Both the position numbers and the translations under genes were made by a program. A stretch of DNA of 64,000 bases, from contig JBAQTB010000003.1 of NCBI GenBank assembly GCA_049296775.1, positions 140,766 to 204,765 on the forward strand. Reading direction: 5' to 3'. The stretch is from Patescibacteria group bacterium (GTDB taxonomy: Bacteria > Patescibacteriota > Patescibacteriia > UBA9934). The first letter of the stretch is position 1. Each line of letters opens with the position of its first letter. The notes under the pieces were generated by a model. The model saw only the letters and a program-made list of their open reading frames with translations. It did not search any database and was not told the DNA's origin. Positions 5,363-34,062 of this stretch are shown here, piece by piece.

Positions 5363-6247
5363 ATGCCGTTGAAATTTATTGATACTCATTGTCACGTGCA
5401 TTTTCAGGCGTATACAGAAGATGTTGATGCTGTTGTCCAGCGCGCGCTGGAGAGTGGAGTGGGCATGATTACCGTTGGGACGCAATCAACTACGAGTAAG
5501 AACGGCATTACTTTGGCGGAGAAGTACGACGGGGTGTGGTGCACGATTGGGTTGCATCCTAACCATTTGCATGCGCAGGATTTTCTTGATGAGAACGAGC
5601 TCCCGCCAGGAGTTGTCGATGACCTTAACGAGCATGACGGGCCTGCGCATATTAAGACAAGAGCGGAGCGTTTTGATCCGGAGTACTATCGAGAGCTCGC
5701 TAAACATCCTAAAGTGGTGGGGATTGGGGAGTTGGGTTTGGATTACTATCGCGTGCCGCCGGGGGTGGAGCTTGAGCAACTGAAAGCTGATCAACAAGCT
5801 CAAGCGCGCGAGCAATTGCGTTTTGCAACCGAGGTCGATAAGCCGGTGGTGATTCATTGTCGTGATGCGCACGCTGACCAGGCGCGCTTGCTGGAGGAGG
5901 AGATTGCCGTTGGTGGCTTGAGCCGCCGCGGCGTGATTCATTGTTTCACTGGGACCCCGGAGGAAGCCAAGCGCTACGTTGATTTAGGTTTTTATATTTC
6001 GTTTTCTGGGATTGTGACTTTTGGTAAGAATGTCATGGCGAGCGCTAAGAGTGTGCCGCTGAATAGATTGTTAATCGAAACAGATTCACCGTATTTAACC
6101 CCAGCACCCTTTAGAGGCCAGCGGAATGAGCCGGCGTACGTGGAGCACATCGCTGCCAAGATCGCGGAGTTGCACGGCGTGAGCGTAGATGAAGTAGCCC
6201 GCATTACCACCCAAAATGCGTGTAATGTTTTCAGACTCTCGATCTAA
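5363..6247 (+). CDS. tatD: TatD family metal-dependent hydrolase/DNase
   Basis: 'FIDTHCHVHF' N-terminal motif plus 'GLHPNH', 'IGELGLDY', 'VIHCRDA', 'ETDSPYL'; in-frame ATG at 5363 preferred over the track start 5315, which overlaps cvpA. Confidence 0.85.
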   Translation: MPLKFIDTHCHVHFQAYTEDVDAVVQRALESGVGMITVGTQSTTSKNGITLAEKYDGVWCTIGLHPNHLHAQDFLDENELPPGVVDDLNEHDGPAHIKTRAERFDPEYYRELAKHPKVVGIGELGLDYYRVPPGVELEQLKADQQAQAREQLRFATEVDKPVVIHCRDAHADQARLLEEEIAVGGLSRRGVIHCFTGTPEEAKRYVDLGFYISFSGIVTFGKNVMASAKSVPLNRLLIETDSPYLTPAPFRGQRNEPAYVEHIAAKIAELHGVSVDEVARITTQNACNVFRLSI

Positions 6248-6267
6248 TGACTCTAAATGTACTTTAC

Positions 6268-6296
6268 TTGACTTTTTTAGCTATTTTACCTAAGCT
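6268..6296 (+). promoter_or_regulatory. Candidate sigma70-type promoter for the atpF-led operon
   Basis: TTGACT (6268-6273), 17-nt spacer, TAAGCT (6291-6296), about 50 nt upstream of the first operon gene. Confidence 0.25.
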
Positions 6297-6347
6297 TGGG
6301 GCGTATTTTTGCAAGCTTTTTCTGGTTGAAGGGGTAAATATCAAGTT

Positions 6348-6884
6348 ATGCCAACAGACACGCAAACAGCTGCTGACGTGGGTGGATCAACTCAAGCTGC
6401 AAATATTAATGGTTTGCCGGTGCAAACCTTGGCCATGGTGTTATTGGCGGTGTGGGCAGTGGTGTTAGTGTCTAGGCGATTTTTGCCAAAACCGATCAAA
6501 CGTTTGACGGACGATCAAGTCCAGCGCATTGAAGAAAGTTTACAGACCACACAAGCCTTGGAGAAAAGATTGCGCGAGATCGAAATTGAAAGAGCGGAGG
6601 TGATTAAACAGGCCAGGGTAGAAGCCCTGGAAATTCGGAAACAGGCTGAGGCTGACGCAGTTATTCGCAAACAGGAGATGTTGGACATGGCGCGTCAGGA
6701 GGTCGAAAAGGTGATTCAGTCGGGTAAATTACTCCTAGAGCAGGAGCGCACTGCGATGCTGATTGCTGTCCGCCGAGACTTGGTTGATATTGCGGTGAAG
6801 GCTTCCGCTAAAATTGTGACCGATGGTTTGACGGTGCAGCGATCCCAATCTTTAGCCGAAGAGATGGTGCGTAAACTGACCTAG
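6348..6884 (+). CDS. atpF: F-type ATPase F0 subunit b (stator stalk)
   Basis: One N-terminal TM helix then a long charged helix, 'RIEESLQTTQALEKRLREIEIERAEVIKQARVEALEIRKQAEADA...', co-linear with subunit b. Confidence 0.7.
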   Translation: MPTDTQTAADVGGSTQAANINGLPVQTLAMVLLAVWAVVLVSRRFLPKPIKRLTDDQVQRIEESLQTTQALEKRLREIEIERAEVIKQARVEALEIRKQAEADAVIRKQEMLDMARQEVEKVIQSGKLLLEQERTAMLIAVRRDLVDIAVKASAKIVTDGLTVQRSQSLAEEMVRKLT

Positions 6885-6886
6885 GT

Positions 6887-7276
6887 ATGTCTAAGGACTT
6901 TAAAGTGTTGGCCGACAAGATTGTTAAAGATACGGCTGACTATGCTGCGGCAGATTTGAAAGTGTACCTAGAGGGAGTGGTGGAGCACTTAGCTAGCCGC
7001 GGACAGTTGTTGGAGTGGCGGCAGCTTGAGAAAGAATTGCATGCGGCTTGGAAGCGCAAGCACGGTGCCGCTAAGCTCACGGTGGCCTCGGCGCATCCGT
7101 TGACTGAGACGGCGCTCAAGCATTTAGAAGCTTTGGCACCGGGAGCGGAGTTTGTGCAGGTAGTGGATGAGCGTTTGATGGCGGGTGCGATTGTACGCTT
7201 GGATGATTACCGATTAGACGGGACGGTACTGGGAGCGTTGACGCGGTTAAAGCAGCAATTACGTTATGGTAAATAA
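6887..7276 (+). CDS. atpH: F-type ATPase subunit delta (OSCP), short form
   Basis: C-terminus 'VVDERLMAGAIVRLDDYRLDGTVLGALTRLKQQL' matches the delta/OSCP C-terminal block (E. coli '..[25 protein letters not shown]..'); 129 aa. Confidence 0.7.
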   Translation: MSKDFKVLADKIVKDTADYAAADLKVYLEGVVEHLASRGQLLEWRQLEKELHAAWKRKHGAAKLTVASAHPLTETALKHLEALAPGAEFVQVVDERLMAGAIVRLDDYRLDGTVLGALTRLKQQLRYGK

Positions 7277-8066
7277 GCTAGACATCATCACAGCTTTGCG
7301 CGAACAGGTGCAAACCTTTAAGGCGCAAGCGCATGCCGAAAATGTCGGTACGGTTTTAACGGTGGTGGCTGGGGTGGTGACGTGTAGTGGTTTAGCTGGG
7401 GTGAAGCAATTTGAGGTGGTCGATTTTGGTCCGGGGTTAACTGGGCTCGTGGTTGGTTTAGCTGAGGAGTACGTCACGGTGGTGGTGCTGGGAACAGCAG
7501 ACGGTATTAAAGCAGGAGACACAGTGCGGCAGTCTGGGGCGGGGTTAAGTTTGCCGGTGTCAGAGTCCTTGTGGGGACGCGTTGTGAATGTGCTTGGGCA
7601 ACCGGTGGATGGTTTGGGGGAGATTCTTGCCGCACAGACCGAGCCAATTACTTTAAAGCCAGATTCAAGTTTGTCGTGCCAACGCTTGCAGGTTGAGAAG
7701 AGCTACGCTGCGGCTGAAGTTTTGCGGGTGGTGCAGGAGGGTAAGACGCAGGGGTTGAAGAGTGTGGTCGTGACCATTGGTGAACGCACGGCTAGTTTGG
7801 CGCAGTTGAAAGGAGCCTTAGAGGCGGCGGGTTGCTTGCAAGAGACTTTATTAGTCGTGGCTGGTGCTGCTGAGCCGGTAGCCTTGCGCTATTTGGCGCC
7901 GTTTAGCGCGGAAGCCGTGACGCGATATTTACTGCGGTTAGATGACAAGTTACAATTAGTTTTTGTGGATTTAGCTGCGCATACGCTGGTGAGTCAGAGT
8001 TGGCAGCAGTTGCTAGGCGCAGGAGCTGTTGAGCCCGTCACCTCCGCTCAGTTATTTTTGGATTAA
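7266..8066 (+). CDS. F1 alpha-subunit-like protein, truncated (266 aa), Walker A reduced to 'VVQEGKT', no C-terminal helical domain
   Basis: N-terminal beta-barrel region aligns with AtpA ('ENVGTVLTVVAGVVTCSGL...GRVVNVLGQPVDGLGEIL'); 'VVVTIGERTASL...LLVVAGAAEPVALRYLAPFSAEA' matches AtpA 'IYVAIGQKAST...[21 protein letters not shown]'; about 30 aa spanning the P-loop are missing. Confidence 0.7.
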   Translation: MVNKLDIITALREQVQTFKAQAHAENVGTVLTVVAGVVTCSGLAGVKQFEVVDFGPGLTGLVVGLAEEYVTVVVLGTADGIKAGDTVRQSGAGLSLPVSESLWGRVVNVLGQPVDGLGEILAAQTEPITLKPDSSLSCQRLQVEKSYAAAEVLRVVQEGKTQGLKSVVVTIGERTASLAQLKGALEAAGCLQETLLVVAGAAEPVALRYLAPFSAEAVTRYLLRLDDKLQLVFVDLAAHTLVSQSWQQLLGAGAVEPVTSAQLFLD

Positions 8067-8071
8067 ATTTT

Positions 8072-9190
8072 GTGGTCAAAAATTTTGTTGCCCAAGTTGG
8101 AGTTAATCAGGTCGATGTCCGGTGCCCGGCTGATGCGCCGTCTTTGTTGAGTGTCTTGGCGGTTAGTAATGGTGACCAGGAATTGCTGTTAGAGGTAGTC
8201 GCGTATTTAGGGGGAGGCTTGGTACGTACTTTGCCGCTCGGGTCGACGACTGGCTTACAGCGTGGGTTAGAGGTTAGATTTGTGAGTAAGAGTTTAAGCG
8301 TTCCGGTTGGTCATGAGCTGCTTGGCAGGCGTATTAATGCACTGGGAAAACCGTTAGACGGGATGGCACCAGTGCAGACTAAGCAATTTGCAGTGAGCCG
8401 TGGCGTGGCCCCAAAGTTAGCTGAGGTAGTTTCCCCGACTAAAATCTTTAGAACTGGAGTGGGTGTGATCGATTTACTCTTTCCGATTCCAGAGGGAGGT
8501 TTGGTCGCCTTGCAATCAAAAACAGGCGTCAGTGCATTGTTTACGCAAGTTTTGCGGGCGTCTGAGGCTAAGTGTGTTTACGTTCTAACCAATGCACGGT
8601 CTAAGCAGGTTGCAGAAGTCATGACGACCTTGGAGCAGGCCCAGGTGATTGCTAAGGCGGTGGTGGTGACGAGTGGCGTGGGTGAGGTGACGGCGCTACA
8701 TAATCAAGCCGTTGACACTGCCTTAACTGTGGCTGAGTCTTTGCGGTCAGTGGCCGGGGTGAGTTTGTGGCTTGATAGTGCAGCAGGTTTAAGCGCGGCC
8801 GCCATGGAGCGCATGGTGTCGACTGCGGCCGGGCCGCTCACGACTTTCTTGCTGGGTGCGCCGCTTGCGAGTTTGGCTACCGACGTGGTGACAGTTGTAC
8901 ATTTTGATGGGGAGTCTAGCGAGTTGGTTGATATCAAGTCTTCACATTCGCATTGGCTAACTGCCAAACAAGTGGGAGCTGAACATTTTGAGGTCGCCAA
9001 TCAGGTGCTGGAGATTTTACGCATGTCAGTCCAGATGAAGGTGGGGGAGAGAGCGCCTGATCCAGCGGTAATCGCTAAAGCTGACAGACTGTGGAGCTAC
9101 TTGCGCGAGTCTAGGGTCGAGATATCAGAGACTGAGGCTTATATTTCGCAGTTAGTGTCTAGGTGTAGAGCTGTTCTGGCTGGGGAGTAA
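8072..9190 (+). CDS. F1 beta-subunit-like protein, truncated (372 aa), catalytic P-loop replaced
   Basis: 'VRTLPLGSTTGLQRGLEV...VPVGHELLGRRINALGKPLDG' aligns with AtpD N-terminus; 'TGVGVIDLLFPIPEGGLVALQSKTGVSAL' aligns with AtpD '[30 protein letters not shown]' but GGAGVGKT is lost. Confidence 0.7.
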   Translation: MVKNFVAQVGVNQVDVRCPADAPSLLSVLAVSNGDQELLLEVVAYLGGGLVRTLPLGSTTGLQRGLEVRFVSKSLSVPVGHELLGRRINALGKPLDGMAPVQTKQFAVSRGVAPKLAEVVSPTKIFRTGVGVIDLLFPIPEGGLVALQSKTGVSALFTQVLRASEAKCVYVLTNARSKQVAEVMTTLEQAQVIAKAVVVTSGVGEVTALHNQAVDTALTVAESLRSVAGVSLWLDSAAGLSAAAMERMVSTAAGPLTTFLLGAPLASLATDVVTVVHFDGESSELVDIKSSHSHWLTAKQVGAEHFEVANQVLEILRMSVQMKVGERAPDPAVIAKADRLWSYLRESRVEISETEAYISQLVSRCRAVLAGE

Positions 9191-9191
9191 A

Positions 9192-9779
9192 GTGATTGCC
9201 AACTGGTGGCAAGCAGCGTATACTTTTGCCAATCAAAAAGTGTTGCGTATGGCTTGGTTGCGCCTGTTGAATCTGTTGTTCTTTGGCCCCAAAGTGACGG
9301 CGTCAAAGAAAAACTATACGGAGACTGAGGGGCGGGAGTTTGCTTTACTTGGAGCGGAGTTACGCGCCTTATTGGCGACTACTCGGTTTGGCAGATCATT
9401 GCGAATTCTCACTGTCTCGGGCGGGTCAAGTAATGCCGAAGAGAGTGAACTCCGAGCTTTAACTAACGCGTATTACGATATCGACCGTTTCGGGTTGAGC
9501 TTTGTGGCTTCTCCCCGGCACGCCGATATCTTATTTGTTACTGGGCCAGTCACGCGTAATTTTGCCGGTGTGCTGAAGGCGGTGTATGCCGCCGTGCCAC
9601 AACCGTGTTTGGTGGTGGCGATTGGGGATGGTGCGTGTACGGGTGGCATTTGGAAAGATTCGTATGCGGTGGTGGGTCCGGTGGCGGCGGTGATCCCGGT
9701 GAATTTGTGTATCCCGGGCGACCCACCTAACCCGACGCAAATTTTACGCGAGTTACTTGGCGCGTTGCGCTCTACCTAA
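9192..9779 (+). CDS. NuoB/HycG-like (hydrogenase small subunit/complex I 20 kDa family) with three of four N2-cluster cysteines replaced
   Basis: 'SPRHADILFVTGPVTRNFAGVLKAVYAAVPQPCLVVAIGDGACTGGIW...IPGDPPNP' aligns with NuoB '[21 protein letters not shown]...ISMGACANSGGMY...IPGCPPRPE'; the CC pair is 'SS', 'GCPP' is 'GDPP'. Confidence 0.7.
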   Translation: MIANWWQAAYTFANQKVLRMAWLRLLNLLFFGPKVTASKKNYTETEGREFALLGAELRALLATTRFGRSLRILTVSGGSSNAEESELRALTNAYYDIDRFGLSFVASPRHADILFVTGPVTRNFAGVLKAVYAAVPQPCLVVAIGDGACTGGIWKDSYAVVGPVAAVIPVNLCIPGDPPNPTQILRELLGALRST

Positions 9780-9784
9780 AATGT

Positions 9785-11803
9785 ATGTCAGGACAAGTGA
9801 TTGCAATTTGCTTGAGTATGTCAGTGCTGGCGTCTGTCATGGCGGCCGCAGCGAGTTTTTGGCCGAGCGGTAAATCGCATAAGCTGACTAGTTGGCTGTT
9901 GGCGGTGGGAGGAGTTTTGGGAGCGGTGGCGGGTTTGCAAATAATGTTGGGTGAGACGCAGACGGTGATGTTGCCGTATTCCTTGTACCCAGTGACAGCT
10001 GTGGATCCGGTCAGTACCTGGCCGTGGTTTTTTGACATGGTCTTTGGCCTAGATAGATTTTCCGCGATTTTTTATACTTTGATCTCGGTGGTGACCGCGA
10101 TGGTCATGGTGTACTCAGTTAAGTTTATCGAAATTAAACGTGAGGCGTATAACTTAAAACTGTACGGGTGCCTTGTGGCGTGTTTGGTGTTGGGTATGCA
10201 GGGGGTTTTACTGTCTACCAACATTTTCGGCTTCATTGGTTTTTGGGAATTAATGGTGTTCTGTATTTGGGGACTATTTTTAGTGACGGGGAGCGTGTCT
10301 GGACAGAGAGCTGGGTTTACCTATTTAGCCATTGCTCACCTGGGCACCGGAGCGATCCTGGCCGGTTTGTTTATTTTGTCTAACGGCGGCTTGCTGAATG
10401 ATTTTGTCACGATTAGCTCAGCAGCCGCAGACTTACCGATGCCGATTTTTGCTGTGGCCTGCGCGTTAATCTTGCTGGGGTTCGGGAGTCAATTAGGGGT
10501 AGTGCCGTTTCATGTGTGGCTGCCGCAATTACAGGTAGAGACGCCCACACCCGCCGCTGCCTTGATTACCGGAGCTGGGTTGGGTGTAGGGGTTTATGGG
10601 TTACTGAGGACGGTGATCTTTTTAGTCCCCACTGTACCTGGCTGGTTTGTGGGCTGTGTTTTGGGGTTTGGGATCTTGACGGCGCTTGTGGGGAGTTTAC
10701 ATGCGGTGGTCGATTTAGACGTAAAACAGACTTTGGGTTATTTTAGCTTAAAAAATGTCGGGTTGCTGTTAATTTTTATTGGCACGGGTTTATTGGCCGG
10801 TTTGCAGGGTAATGCCGAGTTAACGGAAACCGCCTTGTACGCCGGTTTATTTTTATGTTTAGCGCAAGGGGTGCTGCAGACTGCCATGGGGTTGGTGGCT
10901 GGGGTTGCTGAGGAAGCTTTTAAAACGCGAGAGTTAGATCTGATGGGTGGCTTGGCTCAATCTATGCCCAAACTATCTGTAGCGGCGTGCGTGATTGTTT
11001 TAGCAGCTGTAGGACTGCCGCCTTTTGCGCCGTTTATTGCAGAGTGGTCAGTGGTGCAGGCAGCGGTCGGGATTATGGCTACAGCTGAACCGGTGCTCGT
11101 GGTGTCATTGGTGGGTGTGGTAGTGGCGGTGACTTTTGTGACGGGGGTGAGTTTGATGGCGGGCGTTAAGTGGTACGCCGGGATTTTCTTGGCTAGACCA
11201 CGGCAAGTTGTAAGCACAGAGCTGAAAGAACTTGATGGCTATGTCTTAGGGCCAATTGCGGTGGCGGCAGTTTTGAGCGTGTTATTGGCGATGTTCGCCC
11301 CTAGGCTGTTGGCTAAAATGGGTGCCATCCATTTAGCGCCACCTAGTTTGCTGCATCCGGCTTTGGAGACAAGCGGGGGAGGATTAGCTCCGAGCCTGTT
11401 GACCTTAGTGATGGCTGGTGGCGTCTTGGCGCTGCTACTGTTACGGCAATTAATTGTGCGTTCGGGTTCTGTTCGGGTGGTGCCGGCGTGGGATCACGGG
11501 CAGGTGGTGGGTGCCAAAAATGAATATTCAATTACGGGTTTAACCGCGCCGTTTAGGTATTTTTTCCGATTCTTTTTACGGACTCAGAAAGTTGTGGACG
11601 TCCAGGCTGTGCAACTAACTAATCCGTGGGTGGTCACCAAGCACGTGACGTTGGTGGCGGTGCGCCAGTTGACTTACGTGCGGCTTGGTGAGGCTATCAC
11701 CAGGGTTGCTAGTTGTTTGGCGTATTTACAAAATGGCAGTGTCCAGTTTTACGTCTTGCTCATGATTGTGGCTTTGCTCATAACTATGGTGATCGCTTTA
11801 TGA
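9785..11803 (+). CDS. HyfB/NuoL-like antiporter-type membrane subunit (672 aa)
   Basis: Multi-TM protein with 'FHVWLPQLQVETPTPAAALITGAGLGVGVYGLL', a diverged 'WLPDAHxGPTPVSALIHAATMV' NuoL/M/N/HyfB signature; same length as E. coli HyfB. Confidence 0.75.
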   Translation: MSGQVIAICLSMSVLASVMAAAASFWPSGKSHKLTSWLLAVGGVLGAVAGLQIMLGETQTVMLPYSLYPVTAVDPVSTWPWFFDMVFGLDRFSAIFYTLISVVTAMVMVYSVKFIEIKREAYNLKLYGCLVACLVLGMQGVLLSTNIFGFIGFWELMVFCIWGLFLVTGSVSGQRAGFTYLAIAHLGTGAILAGLFILSNGGLLNDFVTISSAAADLPMPIFAVACALILLGFGSQLGVVPFHVWLPQLQVETPTPAAALITGAGLGVGVYGLLRTVIFLVPTVPGWFVGCVLGFGILTALVGSLHAVVDLDVKQTLGYFSLKNVGLLLIFIGTGLLAGLQGNAELTETALYAGLFLCLAQGVLQTAMGLVAGVAEEAFKTRELDLMGGLAQSMPKLSVAACVIVLAAVGLPPFAPFIAEWSVVQAAVGIMATAEPVLVVSLVGVVVAVTFVTGVSLMAGVKWYAGIFLARPRQVVSTELKELDGYVLGPIAVAAVLSVLLAMFAPRLLAKMGAIHLAPPSLLHPALETSGGGLAPSLLTLVMAGGVLALLLLRQLIVRSGSVRVVPAWDHGQVVGAKNEYSITGLTAPFRYFFRFFLRTQKVVDVQAVQLTNPWVVTKHVTLVAVRQLTYVRLGEAITRVASCLAYLQNGSVQFYVLLMIVALLITMVIAL

Positions 11804-12753
11804 GCCCAATTGTTTTAACGATTTTGCAAGTTTGTATGGCGTGCGCCTTGGCGCCGATGACCTTGGGGTTGGTAGCTTTTTTCAAGGCCAGGTTGTTGGG
11901 TAGACACGGTTTACCACCTTGGTCACCGTACTTCAATTATCGAACACTCCTCAAGAAAGAAACTTTGATTCCCGCCTCGGCGTCTTGGCTGTTTGTGGCT
12001 GCGCCCATCATGGTGTTGCTCAGTAGTGGGTTTTTGGTGATGGTGTTGCCGTTATTGACTACTAGCGGCGTGTTCAGCAGCTTATCTAATTTTCTAGTCA
12101 TTGCTGGCGTGCTGGCACTCGGGTCAGTCTTTGTGGTGTTAAGCGGTTTAGACACCGGGAACACGTACTCAGGTTTGGGGTCTAGCCGTCACTTAGTTAT
12201 GGTCGGTTTGTTGGAGCCGACAGTCATTTTAACTTTCGCGGCTTTGGCGTTGTCTACGGGGAGTGGAGAGATCGTCGGCATGCTTGAACATGCGGCGGTG
12301 ACGGGGCAATTGATTGGAACCGCGCCGTATCTGGCCTTGTCACTGCTAGCGTTGGTGCTGGTGTCATTAGCAGAAAATTCACGCTACCCAATTAGTGAGC
12401 CCGGCGCTGAGGCCACCTTAGCCATGGGTCAGGAGGTGACTACTTTTGATTACTCCGGCCCGTTACTGGCCATGCTGGAATACGCGGCCGCGTTGAAGCT
12501 GACAGTGTTTGCGTTGTTGGTAGCGAATTTCATTTTACCGCGGCCGTTACTGACAGATTATGCCGGGGTGGGTGATGTTATGTCTGTCGTCCTGGCCACT
12601 GTGTTGAAATTAATCCTCATGATGATTGCCTTGGCGATTTTAGAATCGTCAACGACTAAGATGAGATTTTACCGCGTTCAAGAGTTTTTGACCGGAGCCT
12701 TTTTCATGGCGTTGTGTGGGTTAGCTTTGGCACTTTTAATGCAACGTTTATGA
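11800..12753 (+). CDS. HyfC/HycD/NuoH-like membrane subunit
   Basis: 'FFKARLLGRHGLPPWSPYFNYRTLLKKE' resembles NuoH/HycD 'ERKxxAxMQxRxGPNxVGxxGLLQPxADxLKLLxKE'; ATG at 11800 overlaps the upstream stop (ATGA); the track ORF starts earlier at 11713. Confidence 0.65.
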   Translation: MSPIVLTILQVCMACALAPMTLGLVAFFKARLLGRHGLPPWSPYFNYRTLLKKETLIPASASWLFVAAPIMVLLSSGFLVMVLPLLTTSGVFSSLSNFLVIAGVLALGSVFVVLSGLDTGNTYSGLGSSRHLVMVGLLEPTVILTFAALALSTGSGEIVGMLEHAAVTGQLIGTAPYLALSLLALVLVSLAENSRYPISEPGAEATLAMGQEVTTFDYSGPLLAMLEYAAALKLTVFALLVANFILPRPLLTDYAGVGDVMSVVLATVLKLILMMIALAILESSTTKMRFYRVQEFLTGAFFMALCGLALALLMQRL

Positions 12754-13412
12754 TCTCTAATTTAACGACCCCTGATGCTGTCAGTATTGCGTGGTCAGTC
12801 ATGTTTTTAGTTGGCGCGTTTTTAGCGGGTGGCAAGTTTAGGCTAGGACAAATTCTCAGATATTACATCTTTCAATCTTTGTGTTTGGTGGGGCTAATGT
12901 TGAGCTTGGCTGAGGTAGCTGATTGGCACGCCTACCTAAGTGCCGCGAGCGTCTTAGTCTTTAGAGCGGTGTTAATGCCGGGACTGTTGATGCTGACTGC
13001 GAATCAATCAGGGGCTAGCGGTCGGTTGTTGTCATTTGTACGGCCAGCGCCTTCATATTTTGTGTCAGGGGTGGCGTTGCTAGCGGCGGTGTTGACCGGA
13101 ATTGCCATCACTCCGCATTTGCCGCAAGCAAATATCATGTTGGTGGTGACGGCCTTTGCTGGAATTTACATGGGCTTAGTCATGGCTGCCATTCGACGAG
13201 ATACTTATTCGCAAGTGATCGGCTTTTTGACCTTTGTGAACGGGATCACGATTTTGGCCGTGACTACGGTTGGCGGTTGGTCGATATTGGAGGAGCTGGG
13301 TATGTTTGTGACAGTGTTGTTGGCCGTATTGTTGTTTAGCTTGTTGTCCCGTAAGTTGAAAGAGCTGTACGCCGTGGAAGATACGGGCATTTTAAAGGAG
13401 TTAGTTGATTAG
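12750..13412 (+). CDS. HyfE-like small polytopic membrane subunit
   Basis: About 220 aa hydrophobic protein at the hyfE position between the NuoH-like and NuoM/N-like genes; ATGA start/stop overlap at 12750. Confidence 0.45.
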   Translation: MISNLTTPDAVSIAWSVMFLVGAFLAGGKFRLGQILRYYIFQSLCLVGLMLSLAEVADWHAYLSAASVLVFRAVLMPGLLMLTANQSGASGRLLSFVRPAPSYFVSGVALLAAVLTGIAITPHLPQANIMLVVTAFAGIYMGLVMAAIRRDTYSQVIGFLTFVNGITILAVTTVGGWSILEELGMFVTVLLAVLLFSLLSRKLKELYAVEDTGILKELVD

Positions 13413-13415
13413 CTT

Positions 13416-14894
13416 ATGTTGCCTGTCTTAATTGCAGTCGTCCTCATCTTAGCCACGGCGAGTGCGTACTTGCCGGTGGGGGAGCGCGTCATCAGGCGAT
13501 TAGGTTTAGCGTTGTCTTTAGTCAGTGTCGGTTTAGTGGGGGCAGCTGTGGTGGGTTGGTTTTTGGGAGTGGATCTAGGCGGTACGGGCCAGGCTTGGCA
13601 GTTGGATAATGTCACCGCTTGCGTGTTGGGATTGCTAGCGATAATTTCCGCTACGACTTCGGTAGTCGCACATCGTTACCTAGAGCAGGAGCTCAAAGAG
13701 AATTTACTTTCGATTACAGAAGTTAAGCATTACTACCGGTTGGTGCCGTTGTTTACGGCGGCTATGTATGTGGCGGTGTGGAGTAATAACGTGGCGGTGA
13801 TCTGGTTGTCCCTCGAGGCCACCACCTTAGCGACGACTTTACTGATTGCGTTTTACCGCAAACGATCAGCCTTGGAAGCGGCCTGGAAATACTTAGTGTT
13901 GAACGCCTTTGGCATGGGTCTCGCCTTAGTCGGTTTGATCTTGTTCGTGTTCGCGTTGACAGGGGGAGCGGACCACGGCACTCAGTTCATGACGAGCTTG
14001 CAGGAGTTGGCAGTGACTGAAGGCGTCAACATCGCACTCTTGCGTTGGGCGTTTGTCTTCTTGTTCATTGGCCTGGGGGCTAAGCTGGGCTTGGTACCCA
14101 TGCACGCCTGGTTACCAGATGCCCATAGCAAAGCGCCATCGCCGGTGTCTGCACTCATGGCAGGCTTGCTCTTGAATGTCGTTTTCATTACCTTGTTGCG
14201 CTTTAGACAGATCGTAGATTTAGCTTTGCTGGACCAGGGTCAGTGGAGCGGGCAATTCTTTTTAGTCTTTGGGTGTTTATCTCTGACTCTGCCTGCGTTA
14301 ATCATGTTGATTCAGAAGAACTACAAACGTTTTTTGTCTTACTCTAGCATTCAGGCCATGGGTGTCATGATGTTTGCAGTTGGTTTGGGTCCAGCGGGCC
14401 TCATCCCGGCGCTCATGTATTTACCTGGTCACGCCTTGCTGAAGAGTGGTTTGTTTTTTGGCGCGGGGGAGATTTTTAATACGTACAAAACTACGGCCTC
14501 TGAAGATATTCCTGATTTGTGGTATCTCTTACCCAAGACAGCGACGTTATTTTTGCTCTTAGCTGTGTGCTTGGTAGGTGTGCCGCCGTCTGCGATTTTT
14601 GTTAGCCAGACCTTGATGTTGGGGTTTGGGTTACGGGAACATTTGGCGATCACCTTATGGGCGACGGTCATGCTGACAGTGGCGGTTTTGACATTGAGCT
14701 ATCAGGTGTATCGTTTAGTCTTTAAATTACCGCTTAAAAAGGCGGAGGTACCCAGGGAGCCATGGAAGCTGGTGCATGTAGGTATGGGTTTGCATTTGCT
14801 GTTGGCGCTCGCCCTCGGACTGTGGTTCTTGACTCCAAGTGGCTTGAACTTCGTTTTAACTTTAGCTGAGGAGCTTAACTCTAACTTACTATGA
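13416..14894 (+). CDS. HyfF/NuoM/NuoN-like antiporter-type membrane subunit
   Basis: 'PMHAWLPDAHSKAPSPVSALMAGLLLNVVFITLLRF' is the canonical NuoL/M/N motif, with the conserved His of 'SALIHAATMV' replaced. Confidence 0.8.
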   Translation: MLPVLIAVVLILATASAYLPVGERVIRRLGLALSLVSVGLVGAAVVGWFLGVDLGGTGQAWQLDNVTACVLGLLAIISATTSVVAHRYLEQELKENLLSITEVKHYYRLVPLFTAAMYVAVWSNNVAVIWLSLEATTLATTLLIAFYRKRSALEAAWKYLVLNAFGMGLALVGLILFVFALTGGADHGTQFMTSLQELAVTEGVNIALLRWAFVFLFIGLGAKLGLVPMHAWLPDAHSKAPSPVSALMAGLLLNVVFITLLRFRQIVDLALLDQGQWSGQFFLVFGCLSLTLPALIMLIQKNYKRFLSYSSIQAMGVMMFAVGLGPAGLIPALMYLPGHALLKSGLFFGAGEIFNTYKTTASEDIPDLWYLLPKTATLFLLLAVCLVGVPPSAIFVSQTLMLGFGLREHLAITLWATVMLTVAVLTLSYQVYRLVFKLPLKKAEVPREPWKLVHVGMGLHLLLALALGLWFLTPSGLNFVLTLAEELNSNLL

Positions 14895-16501
14895 GTACTA
14901 AAGACTTCTTAGCGGATATTTTGGGGATCGTGGTAAGTGAGGAGCGGCCTGGCCAATTAACGGCAAGTGTAGCTAAGGACAAGTTTGCTGACGCAATTGA
15001 TGAACTTGTGAATGCGCGGGGTTTGGTAGCGGGAGTCGAGGCGGAGAGTCAGGAAGGGATGGCGGGAGTTGGTTTGGCGTTAGTGCACATGTTTGCCACG
15101 GATGAGCGGGGGGAGTCTGGGGGGTATGGCGTGCACGTTTTAATTCATGACGATACTGGGCATGCTTGGTTAATGTTGTCGACTAGAGTGTCTGCGGATG
15201 AGCCGAGTTTTCCGGCGGTGACTCCCAGGGTCATGGCAGCGTATTGGTATGAGCGCTACATTCATGACATGTTTGGGATTCGACCTGAGGGGCATCCGGA
15301 TTTGCGCCGCTTGGTGCATCATGAGCATATGCCAAATGAGACTTACCCGTTAAGAAAAGATTTTAAGTGGAACGCTGAGCTTGAGACCGCGGAGAATGCG
15401 TACCCACTCCAAGTTGCCACGGGTGCTGGGGTGTTTGAGCTGACCGTAGGGCCAGTACATGCCGGTGTGGCGGAAGCGGCGCAATTTTGTTTAAGCGTGG
15501 CGGGGGAGCGCGTGATTAGTCTGGACACCAAAGTCTTCTTTGCGCACAAGGGGCTAGAGAAGTTGTTGGAGGGGAAAGAGCCGCTTAGCGTTTTGCCGGT
15601 GATTGAGCGGATAGCGGGAGACGCTGCGCCGTCACATGCCTTGGCATTTTCACAAAGTCTAGAAGCGCTGGCAGACTGTGAGGTGACAGACAGAGCCAAG
15701 GGGCTCAGGACGCTTTTAAATGAGCTGGAACGCATCACACTTCACGTGCATGACCTTGCAGCCGTGGGGGAGGCTGGGACGGGCTACGCGGTCTTAGCGA
15801 GTCACGGGTTTAGGATCGAAGAACGTTTAAGACGTTTGTCTGATGAGCTGTTTGGAAATCGTTTTTGGCGTGGGGTGATTGTACCCGGGGGAGTAGTGCG
15901 GGATTTGAATGCGAATGAGCTCAAGAAAATTGCGATTACAGTGAACGAGGCGATTGAAGAATTGGAGGATTTGGTGAAGTTGGCGTTGAAGTCTGATGGT
16001 TTAAGAGATCAACTGGAGGAAAAGGGTATTTTAAAGCGCGAGGCCGCCTTGGTTTATGGTGCGGTGGGTGTGGTGGCCAGGGCTTCCGGCATCGACAGAG
16101 ATGTCAGACGCGATCATCCTTACGCCGCTTATGACCGCTTTGTGCCGACGATTTCGATTAAGACCAGCGGGGACGTCTATGCCCGACTTCGTCAGCGGGT
16201 TGATGAACTGCTAGAAAGTCAGCGTTTGCTCCAAGAATTGTGTAAGTCTCCCGGCGAGGGGCGATTTTTTGTGAAATGTCAGCCCAAGGATGGGCGAGCT
16301 TGGAGTGCTGTAGAAGGTGGCAGGGGTGAAACTGTGCACGTTATTAGTATCAAGGCCGGGCTGATTGATCGTTACACCATCCGTGGCCCATCCTTTTGCA
16401 ATTGGCCGCTCTTAGCCGAGCTCATGCCAGACAATACTTTATCCGATTTCCCTTTGTGCCTGAGCTCAATGAGTTTGAGTGCTGCTGATTGCGATCTTTA
16501 G
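14891..16501 (+). CDS. Fused NuoC-NuoD / HyfG/HycE-like large subunit lacking the NiFe-ligating cysteines
   Basis: NuoC-like 'ERYIHDMFGIRPEGHPDLRRL'; NuoD/large-subunit-like 'ELTVGPVHAGVAEAAQF'; the N-terminal 'RxCGxCxxxH' site reads 'ERIAGDAAPSHALA' and the C-terminal 'DPCxxCxxH' site reads 'SAADCDL'. Confidence 0.75.
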   Translation: MSTKDFLADILGIVVSEERPGQLTASVAKDKFADAIDELVNARGLVAGVEAESQEGMAGVGLALVHMFATDERGESGGYGVHVLIHDDTGHAWLMLSTRVSADEPSFPAVTPRVMAAYWYERYIHDMFGIRPEGHPDLRRLVHHEHMPNETYPLRKDFKWNAELETAENAYPLQVATGAGVFELTVGPVHAGVAEAAQFCLSVAGERVISLDTKVFFAHKGLEKLLEGKEPLSVLPVIERIAGDAAPSHALAFSQSLEALADCEVTDRAKGLRTLLNELERITLHVHDLAAVGEAGTGYAVLASHGFRIEERLRRLSDELFGNRFWRGVIVPGGVVRDLNANELKKIAITVNEAIEELEDLVKLALKSDGLRDQLEEKGILKREAALVYGAVGVVARASGIDRDVRRDHPYAAYDRFVPTISIKTSGDVYARLRQRVDELLESQRLLQELCKSPGEGRFFVKCQPKDGRAWSAVEGGRGETVHVISIKAGLIDRYTIRGPSFCNWPLLAELMPDNTLSDFPLCLSSMSLSAADCDL

Positions 16502-16530
16502 AGATAGAAGGAAAGAATTTAGAGTTTAAA

Positions 16531-16561
16531 AAAGCCGCTATCGTAGATTCGATAGCGGCTT
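16531..16561. terminator. Hairpin terminator (T-run on minus strand; also ends the plus-strand operon)
   Basis: aagccgctatcg-tagattc-gatagcggctt flanked by aaaaa; minus-strand read gives the hairpin followed by tttttt. Confidence 0.6.
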
Positions 16562-16584
16562 GAGCGGGATGGTCCCGGTACGGT

Positions 16585-16797
16585 CTAGTTTTGCGCACGT
16601 CTCATGACGGCGACATAGGCTGACTCATCAGGTGATGCATAGATGATCTCCCAGCCGGCAGCCCGTCGTCGGGCGAGTCTGGCGCGTACCTGTTCGCGTA
16701 CGCGATTCTCTTGGTGTTTGTGTAGTAGGACGATGACGCTCCCGTGGAACGCCACCAAAAGGACGGCGCCGATTTTCACGGCAAGTAAGATATCCAC
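16585..16797 (-). CDS. Small hypothetical membrane protein (70 aa)
   Basis: ORF with one hydrophobic helix 'ILLAVKIGAVLLVAFHGSVIVLL' then an Arg-rich tail; a terminator lies immediately downstream. Confidence 0.3.
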   Translation of the reverse strand: MDILLAVKIGAVLLVAFHGSVIVLLHKHQENRVREQVRARLARRRAAGWEIIYASPDESAYVAVMRRAQN

Positions 16798-16884
16798 TTT
16801 GATCTCCTACGGTTGGTGAATCTGCACAGGAGAGCATACGCTGGGTCAACATTTACGTCTAGGTTGAGACCGGAAGACAATGCG

Positions 16885-16919
16885 TTTTGCGACGCAAGCA
16901 GCTAGCGCATTTTTCATCC
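16885..16919 (+). repeat. 35-bp direct repeat, copy 1 (ttttgcgacgcaagcagctagcgcatttttcatcc)
   Basis: 33/35 identical to the copy at 18645-18679; both lie on the plus strand upstream of plus-strand genes and bracket a GC-richer cassette. Confidence 0.7.
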
Positions 16920-17024
16920 TCGAGGATGGCCGGCGAGCATCTAAATTCTTTCCTATTCACTCTGTGAATAAGCCCTTGCGTTGCTTAGGCGAGCAGGTAA
17001 GCTAGCGGCACAGCAGGAGGCGAC

Positions 17025-17801
17025 ATGGCGACTGATCGCGCTGAAACATTGTTGACAGAGGGGCGGGTGTGGCTACCGGTGGCGGGTTTACAGGAGGTAT
17101 TGACCGAGGTGCTACGTCGGTTTTCTGACGATGTCTTGGCTAATATCGACTGGGATGACCTCAGAGCAGGTAAATACACCTTCTGGTGTCAGGAGCCGCA
17201 GGAGCAGGGCACTGACGAGCCGGATGATGGACTGATCTACAAGTGCGCAACCGACAAGAGTGATCCTTCCATTGCTCGAACCGGCAAGCGACCAGATCAC
17301 AAAGTGTATATGCAGTGGCGTTGGCGTACTGAACGCTTACTGCGGTCTCGACCAAGTCTGTATAAGCTCGAGTTCAAGGTCTTCTTTGAGATCATGGCTG
17401 AGCTTCAAGAGTTGTTAACTCCGCATATCGACAAGATGTGGCGAGAGCTCCAACTCTTGCGGCCTGAGCTGCAGGGCTTTGAGGTCGATCAGGAGCTGAG
17501 TAGCATACGCGTGATGAGGTACTTGGGAGTCCGGGACGATGAGTCGAGCCTTATCGGTAAGACGCACACGGATCGTGGAGCGTTTACTTGCCACCTGGGC
17601 GACAGTGCTCCGGGGCTAGTAGTTCAGAACTCCAAGGGCGAGTTTGAGTTGGTGCCAACAACTCCTGAACAAACGCTGATTTTTACAGGTGATGCTTTGG
17701 CACGCCTCACGGATCGCCCGGCAGTGGTGCACGGTGCGGCGGCAGGCGCAGATGCGAAGAGGTCGATAGTGGTGGCGTTTGTGTGGATTAAGGCTAAGTA
17801 G
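17025..17801 (+). CDS. 2-oxoglutarate/Fe(II)-dependent oxygenase superfamily protein
   Basis: 'GKTHTDRGAFTCHLGDSAPGLVVQN...GEFELVPTTPEQTLIFTGDALARLT...AVVHGAA' fits the HxD...H 2OG-FeII_Oxy core (HTD...GGLQV...W..V.P..G.LVVN.GD). Confidence 0.55.
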   Translation: MATDRAETLLTEGRVWLPVAGLQEVLTEVLRRFSDDVLANIDWDDLRAGKYTFWCQEPQEQGTDEPDDGLIYKCATDKSDPSIARTGKRPDHKVYMQWRWRTERLLRSRPSLYKLEFKVFFEIMAELQELLTPHIDKMWRELQLLRPELQGFEVDQELSSIRVMRYLGVRDDESSLIGKTHTDRGAFTCHLGDSAPGLVVQNSKGEFELVPTTPEQTLIFTGDALARLTDRPAVVHGAAAGADAKRSIVVAFVWIKAK

Positions 17802-17888
17802 TTGATCTACACACTTTCCGACCGGGTTGGACTTCATGTTCAGACCCGGTTTTCTATTAAAAGCAACGACCCGCCACGAGGTGGCGGG

Positions 17889-18491
17889 TCAGGAGGAAGG
17901 GTTGGCGATCTCACGAATGATCTGGGAAAGCACATTCACAGTCACGCCGAGGTAGTCGGCTAGGTGACCAAGTTCGTCCTGGTCCGGATCAGCGACACTG
18001 CCATTCAAGAGCAGTCGTAGCTTGCTTGGTCCCAGGTCTGATCCAGCATGAGAGATGTACAGCTCTCTCAGATTGTTGTGATCGGGGATTTCTTGCAGGT
18101 AGGCCAGGACCGGGGTGTTGAGGTTGGGTCGGCCTGGAAAGTGGAAGGTAATATCGATCTTTGGGGAGGGGTTGGCGATCTCTCTGATGATCTTAGTGAG
18201 TACATTCACAGTCACGCCTAGGTAGTCGGCTAGGTGACCAAGTTCGTCCTGGTCCAGGTACGCGACGTTACCGTCTAACAGTAGGCGTAACTTTTTTGGT
18301 CCCAGGTCTGATCCAGCATGAGAGATGTACAGCTCTCTCAGATTGTTGTGATCGGGGATTTCTTGCAGGTAGGCCAGGACCGGGGTGTTGAGGTTGGGTC
18401 GGCCTGGGAAATTGGTGGTGATGTCGATTTTTCTAGGCGGTGGTTTTTCCTGTCTTTTACCTTCGTGATCGTCATCTCGTTTACGTTTCAT
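17889..18491 (-). CDS. Hypothetical protein with two near-identical tandem ~90-aa repeats, each resembling an XRE-type HTH
   Basis: Repeat units '...FPGRPNLNTPVLAYLQEIPDHNNLRELYISHAGSDLGP.KLRLLL.G.VA..DQDELGHLADYLGVTVNVL..IIREIANPS' occur twice; the tail 'DELGHLADYLGVTVNVL' resembles the end of HTH_XRE domains. Confidence 0.5.
   Translation of the reverse strand: MKRKRDDDHEGKRQEKPPPRKIDITTNFPGRPNLNTPVLAYLQEIPDHNNLRELYISHAGSDLGPKKLRLLLDGNVAYLDQDELGHLADYLGVTVNVLTKIIREIANPSPKIDITFHFPGRPNLNTPVLAYLQEIPDHNNLRELYISHAGSDLGPSKLRLLLNGSVADPDQDELGHLADYLGVTVNVLSQIIREIANPSS
17897..18436. repeat. Intragenic tandem direct repeat, 2 x ~270 bp
   Basis: A 110-nt block (ggtcccaggtctgatccagcatgagag...gggtcggcctgg) is identical at 18028-18137 and 18298-18407; flanking parts of each unit are more diverged. 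Confidence 0.8.
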
Positions 18492-18557
18492 TTGAATCTC
18501 CCTGTTCCATTTGTTAGCAATGGAAGACTAAGATTAGCAGATTTATCAACTAAAGTC

Positions 18558-18597
18558 AAAAAAAAGACACGCCGTCGTCTTGTGTGACGACGGCGTA
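18558..18597 (-). terminator. Rho-independent terminator oriented on the minus strand
   Basis: acgccgtcgtc-ttgtgtg-gacgacggcgt hairpin (11-bp stem); on the minus strand it is followed by tctttttttt. Confidence 0.5.
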
Positions 18598-18644
18598 CGG
18601 GTCGAAGGAGCGTAGCTAAGATCTATCCCAGAAGTACACTAATC

Positions 18645-18679
18645 TTTTACGACGCAAGCAGCTAACGCATTTTTCATCC
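18645..18679 (+). repeat. 35-bp direct repeat, copy 2 (ttttacgacgcaagcagctaacgcatttttcatcc)
   Basis: See copy 1 at 16885-16919. Confidence 0.7.
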
Positions 18680-18793
18680 GGCAGGCATGTACGTCGATGA
18701 TCGTTAAACGACATTGAAGGGAGGGGGCAGAGACCCTTCGTAACCTCAGGGTGGCGATTGGCAGTATAGCGATGTCGAGTGTGTTGGCGGGCG

Positions 18794-18832
18794 TTGACGA
18801 TAAATACAACTAAATTCTAAAATCCAAAGTCT
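18794..18832 (+). promoter_or_regulatory. Candidate promoter plus shared 17-nt leader motif TCTAAAATCCAAAGTCT upstream of the helicase gene
   Basis: TTGACG (18794-18799), 18-nt spacer, TAAAAT (18818-18823); the 17-mer recurs at 39239-39255 upstream of clpB with 16/17 identity. Confidence 0.35.
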
Positions 18833-18876
18833 AAGATCTTTCCTTAGTCCTCTGCAGACGGTACACTTCCCGTACT

Positions 18877-32654: not shown

Positions 32655-32658
32655 ATGT

Positions 32659-33558: not shown

Positions 33559-33597
33559 CGTCCTTACAGGATAGATCTAAACTCTTTCCCATTCTCT

Positions 33598-34062
33598 ATG
33601 TCGTTACTCAATAAACCAGCACCAACTTTCACGCTTCCTGACCAGCAGGGGACTGAGCACTCGCTCTCCGATTACAAGGGCAAATGGGTCGTGTTGTACT
33701 TCTACCCCAAAGACATGACTCCAGGCTGTACGGTGGAGGCGTGTAGTTTTAGAGATAATGAAGCTCGTCTCACGGCAGCGGGTGCAGTTGTACTTGGTGT
33801 CTCAGCCGATTCCGTCAAACGTCACGCTAAGTTCGCAGCCAACGAAAAACTCAATTTTCCCATTTTGTCCGACGAGTCAAAAGAAGTTTGTAAGGCTTAC
33901 GAATCTTACGGCAAGAAAAAATTCATGGGCAGAGAATACGAAGGCATCATGCGGAATACTTTTTTAATCGATCCCACTGGCGAGATCGTCAAGATTTACG
34001 AGACCGTCAAGCCAGGTACACACGTACAGGAGATTTTGGACGATCTCAAGGCCCTTAAGTAG
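33598..34062 (+). CDS. bcp: Thiol peroxidase Bcp (peroxiredoxin Q family)
   Basis: 'YFYPKDMTPGCTVEACSFRD' with CxxxxC; 154 aa. Confidence 0.85.
   Translation: MSLLNKPAPTFTLPDQQGTEHSLSDYKGKWVVLYFYPKDMTPGCTVEACSFRDNEARLTAAGAVVLGVSADSVKRHAKFAANEKLNFPILSDESKEVCKAYESYGKKKFMGREYEGIMRNTFLIDPTGEIVKIYETVKPGTHVQEILDDLKALK

Follow-up and report, generated by a model that had tools for sequence, protein, structure and literature searches.

A reduced ATP synthase operon in front of a cofactor-less Ehr module: a singleton derivative of a widespread Patescibacteria arrangement

On the plus strand of a 64,000-nt stretch of DNA from a Patescibacteria group bacterium (contig JBAQTB010000003.1, positions 140,766 to 204,765; hereafter the window), ten closely spaced open reading frames (ORFs), all of them open, were examined at positions 6348-16501. 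The first four derive from genes of an F-type ATP synthase (atp genes) and encode subunits b and delta together with truncated versions of alpha and beta, here called alpha' and beta', while the other six form an Ehr-type module without metal cofactors. This locus is a reduced derivative, found only once, of an arrangement that is widespread in Patescibacteria and in which an atp operon stands directly before the Ehr module; it is not a new class of machine. It is probably a lineage-specific, cut-down version of that arrangement, dismantled while selection continued to act on the surviving proteins. An earlier note, made by a model from the sequence alone, had placed the ten plus-strand ORFs correctly, and its gene identities, including the membership of the alpha- and beta-like ORFs in the ATP-synt_ab family, are borne out by Pfam and NCBIfam profile searches, on which the gene assignment here is based.

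The arrangement in the relatives was surveyed with the NuoB-like protein as anchor, using one genome per GTDB species. This gave 496 relatives, among which the best 80 loci were mapped (given L numbers below); the source genome itself is not among the scanned GTDB species representatives. Upstream genes were counted in the 65 loci that have 3 kb or more of sequence before the module. In 46 of these the six-gene module is immediately preceded, on the same strand, by F1 genes (beta or epsilon), and 36 of the 46 have subunit a together with all four F1 genes. Homologues of the NuoCD-like protein number in the thousands, and those of the best 120 (46-64% identity) that bear a name are labelled Patescibacteria, Uhrbacteria, Falkowbacteria, Peregrinibacteria or Moranbacteria.

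The nearest relatives (L008, L012, L022 and L066) share both flanks with the window, namely methionyl-tRNA synthetase, CvpA and TatD upstream, and a UvrD-like helicase, ORFs of 117 and 131 aa, MreB and MreC downstream. In these relatives the genes from TatD to NuoB are a-c-b-delta-alpha-gamma-beta-epsilon, and in L008, L012 and L022 the genes a, c and b come 0.3-1.6 kb after TatD. The stretch that separates the end of TatD from the start of NuoB measures about 7.5 kb in L008 and 3.0 kb in the window. Because relatives with the same flanks hold the full operon at the same site, the window is the orthologous locus minus about 4.5 kb, a derived, cut-down atp operon rather than a hybrid of separate parts, and the short intergenic region between TatD and b is the deletion scar. 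Horizontal gain of an unusual alpha/beta pair of the N-ATPase or mollicute type was considered and rejected, given the synteny of the locus, the similarity of b, delta and the N-terminal helix of alpha to their counterparts in close relatives, and the fact that atpA and atpD score best among the NCBIfam models. A beta pseudogene that appeared to be present in a near relative (L005/L008) was likewise discarded, the apparent split being a 100-N scaffold gap.

Three further features of the relatives were observed along the way. On a Moraniibacteriota contig (JBAQNM010000005.1; L052, positions 7757-20365), the order is TatD, an atpI-like gene, a, c, b, the Ehr module, a Pro_CA_2 gene and a second atpI-like-a-c-b set. 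There are no F1 genes between b and the module, and the two copies of a are 32% and those of b 38% identical; L052 is thus a second, independent reduced atp operon before the module, in which Fo is kept and F1 is missing. In addition, the Ehr module was found on Acidobacteriota-labelled contigs of 0.4-5.4 Mb (L074, L079, L080, L081 and L086; Vicinamibacterales L083 and L084), where the NuoB-like protein is 56-61% identical and no atp genes are nearby. The module family thus extends beyond Patescibacteria, which suggests a horizontal transfer. Finally, a conserved ORF of 210-240 aa without Pfam match occupies the gap between epsilon and NuoB in L014, L016, L017, L018, L019, L037 and L050. In such loci, which are of the Uhrbacteria type, its product could be another accessory subunit.

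The losses from the ATP synthase are extensive. Searches by tblastn, with a and c queries taken from the candidate phyla radiation (CPR), found no homologue of a, c, gamma or epsilon in the 64-kb window, as the earlier note had said. In the alignments with the canonical proteins, the alpha P-loop GDRQTGKT is deleted (alignment A1), the beta P-loop GGAGVGKT corresponds to SKTGV plus a six-residue gap, and the catalytic Glu of beta is gone, GER having become NAR (alignment A2). The alpha' protein keeps the N-terminal helix, the beta-barrel crown and roughly one half of its nucleotide-binding domain (NBD); it stops after the Walker-B region and is without the P-loop, the arginine-finger region and the C-terminal domain. 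The beta' protein has a shrunken three-domain fold, from which the Lys-Thr of the P-loop and the DELSEED loop have disappeared. The NCBIfam scores are correspondingly low, 143 bits for alpha' against an atpA cut-off of 484 and 126 bits for beta' against an atpD cut-off of 463. With a, c, gamma and epsilon absent and the nucleotide sites of alpha and beta lost, no rotary ATPase can be encoded here, and rotary ATP synthesis or hydrolysis from the locus is impossible. An AlphaFold2 model of beta' (predicted local distance difference test, pLDDT, 81.5; predicted template modelling score, pTM, 0.80) has F1 beta chains as its best Foldseek matches (TMq 0.79-0.88, over three domains), the fold being biased by the alignment of canonical beta subunits used as input. 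For alpha', run as a single sequence, the model is uninformative (pLDDT 39).

What has been kept is the peripheral stalk, for which b and delta match Pfam ATP-synt_B and OSCP above the gathering thresholds. The rate of change of each part was judged against L022 as yardstick, which is about as far from L008 and L012 as the window is; the values below are identities to L008/L012, with those of the yardstick in brackets. The housekeeping proteins of the window are not accelerated, their identities to the relatives being 78-81% for TatD, 75-79% for UvrD and 92-95% for MreB. Delta aligns over its full length at 51-53% (46-48%), and its 129 aa are typical of the lineage (124-133 aa), which rules out that it is a truncated protein. 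Subunit b as a whole reaches 53-57% (54-56%); its C-terminal half is at 55-72% (53-69%), whereas the membrane helix and hinge have fallen to 29-41% (74-76%). For alpha the values are 56-68% (76-80%) in the N-terminal helix, 49% (84-87%) in the crown and 32-34% (88-89%) in the NBD, and for beta they are 45-49% (70-73%) in the crown, 29-30% (93-95%) in the NBD and 25% (93-94%) in the C-terminal domain. In known enzymes the C-terminal half of b binds delta and F1 and its membrane helix contacts subunit a, and in solved ATP synthases the N-terminal helix of alpha is the delta-binding element. Judged from these identities, conservation declines with structural distance from delta, which is the reverse of the usual pattern with the catalytic domain conserved best. 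Purifying selection would accordingly still act on delta, on the half of b that binds it and on the N-terminal helix of alpha, and more weakly on the alpha and beta crowns, and the parts that once contacted a, gamma, epsilon or nucleotide seem no longer to be constrained.

Could the four atp-derived ORFs nevertheless be mere remnants? Across the 10.1 kb there are no stop codons or frameshifts. When the genes of a relative were subjected in simulation to unconstrained substitution down to the observed amino-acid identity, beta' acquired 8.6 stops on average and none in 0.4% of the runs (P 0.004), and alpha' acquired 5.3 stops on average and none in 1% of the runs (P 0.01); both real genes have none. 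The internal gaps relative to the canonical proteins, 3 in alpha' and 11 in beta', are all deletions (14 of 14) and all in frame, and alpha' and beta' match housekeeping genes both in GC content by codon position and in the likelihood of their in-frame codon usage. Between the window and its nearest relatives, at 75-81% protein identity for TatD and UvrD, synonymous sites would be saturated for a comparison of nonsynonymous and synonymous rates (dN/dS). The view that the frames are held open by selection rather than by chance, put forward in the earlier note, is supported by the stop simulation, the in-frame gaps and the codon usage.

If the operon were purely decaying, the atp-derived ORFs would have no function at the protein level, and they would be open either as not yet disrupted or for the reason that stops would lower downstream Ehr expression through polarity or a loss of translational coupling. 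Such decay would explain why the form is a singleton, why every catalytic and rotor element is gone, why alpha and beta are extremely divergent, why the genes have shrunk by deletions alone, as deletion bias would give, and why the Ehr module is drifting as well. However, delta and the C-terminal half of b change as slowly as in genomes with a working enzyme, whereas the b membrane helix and the alpha and beta catalytic domains do not; frames open at such divergence would be expected by chance at only about 0.004 x 0.01; codon usage is normal; and a promoter-like site between beta' and NuoB, found in a scan that is not significant as a whole, would make read-through unnecessary. Selection for read-through only would in any case be insufficient, because delta and the b C-terminal half are conserved residue by residue. 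Pure decay is thus considered unlikely.

The truncated alpha/beta pair is a singleton. An exhaustive phmmer search with beta' over 1.84 billion cluster representatives (about 15 billion proteins) found no close relative, with nothing better than E 1e-27, and all other matches are canonical beta subunits or fragments of them. No close relative of the truncated genes was met in a word-indexed search either, a DNA scan of Joint Genome Institute (JGI) metagenomes with alpha' found nothing close, and comparable truncation of alpha and beta occurs in 0 of the 80 species loci. Conservation of synteny in related genomes, which the earlier note had proposed as a check, is found for the module and its link to the atp genes, and fails for the truncated form, of which no further case was found.

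That the truncated genes were produced by assembly or binning could be suspected in a metagenome-assembled genome. However, an independent Logan assembly of run SRR28012402 contains this locus with an identical ORF structure, and an artefact specific to the source assembly is therefore ruled out; moreover, the ORFs are contiguous, codon-adapted and without Ns, and the flanking synteny is intact on both sides. Any artefact of this kind has a negligible chance of being the explanation. Alternatively, b and delta could belong to another, complete ATP synthase whose alpha, gamma, beta, epsilon, a and c are encoded elsewhere in the genome, with alpha' and beta' as leftovers. Inspection covered 64 kb of the 383.5-kb contig, and L052 demonstrates that two sets of atp genes can coexist. 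On the other hand, no canonical beta on the source contig was found among the 120 closest relatives of the clade's beta, the second set in L052 has its own b, and the conservation of the delta-binding N-terminal helix of alpha' would be unneeded. A second synthase of this kind is very improbable.

The second half of the operon has the order NuoB-HyfB-NuoH-HyfE-HyfF-NuoCD, which is identical in more than 70 loci. Its description in the earlier note as hyf-like (B-C-E-F-G), cofactor-less and Ehr-type stands, as does that of the degenerate Walker A, N2 and NiFe sites, which alignments to canonical alpha and beta, to MbhJ/HycG and to HycE bear out. The Ehr concept itself is already in the literature (see also Marreiros et al. 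2013). The large subunit has HycE of the E. coli formate hydrogenlyase (FHL) as its best solved match (7z0s_E, E 1.4e-59). HycE RVCGICGFAH aligns to RIAGDAAPSH, so that C241 and C244 are replaced by Ala, and the C-terminal DPCxxC corresponds to SLSAAD when the alignment is extended by eye. For the small subunit the best solved match is MbhJ (6cfw_J), and the cluster cysteines of MbhJ and HycG align to S, E, G and D, substitutions that are invariant throughout the family. The N2 ligands are absent, and no NuoI or NuoE/F/G gene was found in or beside the operon or among the other window ORFs of at least 150 aa. Judged from these residues, neither the Ni-Fe nor the Fe-S cofactors of the related hydrogenases and of complex I can be bound by the products of the locus. 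The HyfE-like protein is 46-58% identical to those of close relatives, and in L002 and L052 it is fused to the NuoH-like protein, the fusion product having a weak Oxidored_q2 match; the NuoCD-like protein is 59-64% identical to its nearest Patescibacteria homologues.

The degeneration of the conserved site in transmembrane helix 7 (TM7), ascribed in the earlier note to both antiporter-like subunits, applies to one of them. In the HyfB-like subunit the TM7 Lys is Gln in the window and Lys in the other 85 loci, whereas the HyfF-like subunit of the window keeps its TM7 Lys motif, AKLGLVPMHAWLPDAHSKAP. In some close relatives whose atp operons are intact, the otherwise conserved TM7 Lys of the HyfF-like subunit has been lost, being Met in L001/L012 and Leu in L006.

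Substitution is by no means limited to TM7. Counted over near-invariant positions (at least 93% agreement among some 70-80 members of the family), the substitutions in the window number 9 of 79 in NuoB, 37 of 107 in the HyfB-like subunit (the family maximum), 23 of 75 in the NuoH-like, 3 of 21 in the HyfE-like, 11 of 87 in the HyfF-like and 35 of 168 in the NuoCD-like subunit. The total for the module is 118 of 537, against a family median of 0-1 per subunit, and the window ranks first in four of the six subunits and second in the other two. The Ehr module here is therefore the most derived among the 70-80 or so family members. Substitution counts are also raised in L012 and L006, two close relatives whose atp operons are intact. 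Constraint on the whole cluster thus seems to be altered or relaxed throughout a small clade, with the window as the extreme.

These data bear on the proposal of the earlier note that the operon encodes a dedicated machine tethering an F1-like head and stalk to a complex-I-type arm, a purpose-built hybrid in which the b/delta stalk and the P-loop-less alpha'/beta' head would dock on the Ehr membrane arm as a cap or tether. The ten genes are indeed co-directional and closely packed, the atp-Ehr linkage is conserved over many lineages, and L052 independently has atpI-a-c-b directly before the module with no F1 genes between. Also in its favour, b, delta and the N-terminal helix of alpha remain conserved in the absence of their canonical partners, and the membrane helix of b is remodelled, as expected if its partner is no longer subunit a. 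However, the adjacency is ancestral and is accounted for by an ordinary complete atp operon upstream, the reduced form was found in no other genome searched, and the Ehr subunits lose family-invariant residues without any conserved new interface. With the adjacency inherited (46 of 65 loci) and the truncated pair a singleton, the dedicated machine is not upheld, and a hybrid of this design is improbable. Nearly as doubtful is the related idea that b, delta, alpha' and beta' would together have been exapted as a nucleotide-free stator cap with a new membrane partner, plausibly the Ehr arm. If this were true, it would be the first F-type peripheral stalk and crown to survive and work without a rotor.

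Under the preferred reading of a dismantled operon, the ancestral state would have been a full F1Fo operon (atpI-like, a, c, b, delta, alpha, gamma, beta and epsilon) directly before the six-gene Ehr module. Gene-sized deletions, together with many in-frame ones, would have removed a, the rotor (c, gamma and epsilon) and the nucleotide sites of alpha and beta. Subunit b, delta and the N-terminal parts of alpha' and beta' would still assemble into a membrane-anchored, catalytically dead and nucleotide-free subcomplex of peripheral stalk and crown, and we infer that this subcomplex, still being made, is the most likely product of the four genes. The Ehr proteins would also still be made, with their ancestral ion-handling role probably weakened or altered, because the window has the most family-invariant substitutions, including the loss of the HyfB-like TM7 Lys.

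Several points weigh against this reading. The truncated genes are present in a single organism only, and their persistence over evolutionary time is not demonstrable. There may be a second atp operon on another contig, the check for beta covering the 383.5-kb contig only. An operon in the process of disappearing would likewise show heavy substitution at Ehr invariant sites and lack all partner genes. Furthermore, the beta' model leans to the F1-beta fold, canonical beta being the input of its alignment.

The survey of the relatives also points to a possible function of the intact arrangement. In about 31 of the 80 loci the module has a gene for a putative carbonic anhydrase as its immediate neighbour on at least one side. 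A CsoSCA-like gene occupies the space between epsilon and NuoB, some 1 kb ahead of the latter, in 15 loci (L007, L011, L022, L031, L035, L039, L043, L045, L053, L057, L058, L061, L062, L067 and L070) and after NuoCD in 5 (L013, L025, L051, L059 and L065). Pro_CA_2 genes follow NuoCD in 6 loci (L011, L020, L024, L027, L052 and L068), and hexapeptide-repeat proteins do so in another 6 (L044, L056, L064, L069, L072 and L073). In the CsoSCA-like family the residues C-x-D-x-R, H and C, which are the zinc-site signature of beta-carbonic anhydrases, are invariant in 20 of 20 sequences. No carbonic-anhydrase gene was found in the window. This neighbourhood suggests an energy-coupled CO2/bicarbonate function of the module. 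It is a serious though tentative possibility that ATP synthase, carbonic anhydrase and Ehr module of Patescibacteria would form one functional unit, in which ion movement driven by ATP or by a gradient would be coupled to the interconversion of CO2 and bicarbonate. It is an acknowledged puzzle what the ATP synthase of the respiration-less Patescibacteria works against (PMC8080830), and the gene cluster is a concrete, testable candidate for its missing partner.

The features of the locus are listed in Table 1.

Table 1. Genes and junctions of the reduced atp-Ehr locus, in window coordinates.
Feature	Position	Strand	Remarks
TatD-to-b intergenic region	6248..6347	+	b starts 100 nt past TatD; in relatives about 2.3 kb with atpI-like, a and c
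Subunit b, 178 aa	6348..6884	+	Pfam ATP-synt_B, E 8.5e-13; one N-terminal membrane helix and a long soluble helix
Delta/OSCP, 129 aa	6887..7276	+	Pfam OSCP, E 2.3e-10
Alpha-derived remnant (alpha'), 266 aa	7266..8066	+	Pfam ATP-synt_ab_N and partial ATP-synt_ab
Beta-derived remnant (beta'), 372 aa	8072..9190	+	Pfam ATP-synt_ab_N and partial ATP-synt_ab
beta'-NuoB junction	9191..9248	+	in relatives epsilon here, in some also a CsoSCA-like carbonic anhydrase
NuoB/HycG/MbhJ-like small subunit	9249..9779 (ORF from GTG 9192)	+	Pfam Oxidored_q6, E 4.7e-21
HyfB/NuoL-like antiporter-type subunit, 672 aa	9785..11803	+	Pfam Proton_antipo_M; best NCBIfam name hydrogenase 4 subunit B
HyfC/NuoH-like subunit, 317 aa	11800..12753	+	Pfam NADHdh, E 1.3e-25
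HyfE-like small membrane subunit, 220 aa	12750..13412	+	no Pfam match; NCBIfam NF008556 'hydrogenase 4 membrane subunit', E 1.1e-8, under the curated cut-off
HyfF/NuoM-like antiporter-type subunit, 492 aa	13416..14894	+	Pfam Proton_antipo_M, E 3.7e-50; best NCBIfam name hydrogenase 4 subunit F
Fused NuoC-NuoD/HycE-like large subunit, 536 aa	14891..16501	+	Pfam Complex1_30kDa and Complex1_49kDa

None of the ten proteins reaches the curated NCBIfam cut-off of any family. As for the junctions, the earlier note had reported four ATGA-type overlaps and gaps of 0-6 nt elsewhere. ATGA overlaps are present at 11800, 12750 and 14891, whereas the overlap at 7266 is one of 11 nt; the remaining gaps are 2-6 nt (5 nt between alpha' and beta'), the possible exception being that between beta' and NuoB. 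Here the start in relatives is equivalent to ATG 9249, not GTG 9192, and the spacer after beta' may be 58 nt rather than 1 nt, its sequence otherwise being the 5' end of the NuoB-like ORF. A promoter-like TTGCCA-17-TATACT is found at 9196-9224, and before b a TTGACT at 6268-6273 with a weak -10-like TAAGCT 17 nt downstream was seen by eye and left unflagged by the promoter scan. The scan of the window gave 11 promoter-like sites versus 10.4 expected from shuffled sequence, that is, no excess, and such sites are a weak hint at most. A 73-aa ORF at 6247-6468 was tried as a c subunit and rejected, with no Pfam match and no tblastn match with c.

The rest of the window is occupied by housekeeping genes, such as those for tRNA synthetases, PBP2, MreBC, ClpB, soluble pyrophosphatase and RpoA, and by cell-envelope genes. 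At 17025-17801 (+), 524 nt past the module, there is a 2OG-Fe(II) oxygenase-like gene of 258 aa, which takes the same slot in L004 and L006; elsewhere the slot holds a carbonic anhydrase or the UvrD-like helicase. A 32-nt stem-loop-like sequence, TGAGAGATGTACAGCTCTCTCAGATTGTTGTG, occurs in two identical copies 270 nt apart, at 18049-18080 and 18319-18350 (+). Both lie within a minus-strand helix-turn-helix gene (17889-18491), which indicates an internal duplication. In addition, the GC skew is strongly positive (0.09-0.26) until about 34 kb and mostly negative beyond (switch at about 32000-35000), and all genes are on the plus strand up to 34062, with changing orientation after that, which may reflect a replication-related skew switch.

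The interest of the locus is twofold, lying in the delta-centred retention within a dismantled ATP synthase and in the supercluster that it revealed. As a natural dissection of F1Fo, it suggests that the peripheral stalk and the crown can be retained together as one unit, and it reveals in what order constraint was released. It also indicates that the Ehr module can outlive the ATP synthase to which it is usually linked, which bears on the function of the module. The supercluster, an atp operon followed by a cofactor-less Ehr module, often with a putative carbonic anhydrase whose active site is intact, is widespread and apparently undescribed: full-text literature searches (subscription-only papers not covered) gave no description of an atp-Ehr or Ehr-carbonic-anhydrase linkage in CPR bacteria.

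Among the known systems closest to the second half of the operon is Ehr itself. A CPR-specific Ehr clade without NiFe cysteines has already been described (Jaffe et al. 2020, PMC7304191), in a study that gives a phylogeny of the large subunit only and in which ATP synthase is unmentioned. The module here resembles Ehr (PMC7304191) in its large subunit, which is akin to group 4 NiFe hydrogenases and NuoD and is without the metal-binding cysteines, in the NuoB-, NuoH- and antiporter-like subunits that accompany it, and in having Patescibacteria proteins as its closest homologues. It differs in lacking the NuoB Fe-S ligands and a NuoI/HycF-type subunit, and is the most derived member of the family. 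The family, moreover, reaches beyond the CPR, being present on megabase-scale Acidobacteriota contigs too.

Compared with E. coli hyf and FHL (7Z0S), the likeness is in the B-C-E-F-G-like order, in HyfB, HyfE and HyfF as best NCBIfam names, and in HycE as best match of the large subunit, including the fused NuoC-like N-terminal domain. However, there is here no NiFe site, no proximal cluster and no ferredoxin-like subunit (HyfA, HyfH, HycB or HycF); HyfD, formate dehydrogenase and maturation genes are missing, the small subunit comes first, and the scores are far below the NCBIfam cut-offs. Neither motif of the group 4 [NiFe]-hydrogenases, L1 (RxCGxCxxxH) or L2 (DPCxxCxxH/R), is found in the large subunit. 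With the Mrp antiporters and the arms of MBH and MBS the module shares two MrpA/D-type subunits, a NuoH-like subunit and a small NuoK/HyfE-like one, and MbhJ of the Pyrococcus MBH is the best peripheral match. It differs from them in its cofactor-less NuoB/NuoCD peripheral pair, and other Mrp subunits were not identified here.

In cyanobacterial NDH-1MS/CupA (PMC6981117) and in DabAB (bioRxiv 10.64898/2026.03.13.711513), complex-I-type membrane subunits drive vectorial CO2 hydration. The relatives of the window are similar in that an antiporter-containing, complex-I-type module adjoins carbonic-anhydrase genes with intact zinc-site residues. The enzymes of the relatives, however, are CsoSCA-like, Pro_CA_2 or hexapeptide-repeat proteins and neither CupA nor DabA, the module is without redox input, and the window has no such gene.

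As for the first half of the operon, b and delta are ordinary members of the bacterial F1Fo families at the orthologous atp position, and alpha' and beta' descend from atpA and atpD. In contrast to F1Fo, a, c, gamma and epsilon are missing here, the P-loops are deleted, the C-terminal half of alpha is gone, and beta is without the catalytic Glu and the DELSEED loop. A further comparison is offered by the F1-like X0 ATPases of mollicutes, which are divergent alpha/beta-like pairs detached from the canonical Fo that keep their Walker motifs and hydrolyse ATP. The alpha' and beta' of the window have weak NCBIfam matches to these families (MSC_0618/0619 and MMOB1660/1670); however, atpA and atpD are their best models, their nucleotide sites are gone, and they arose in situ rather than as a separate paralogous family.

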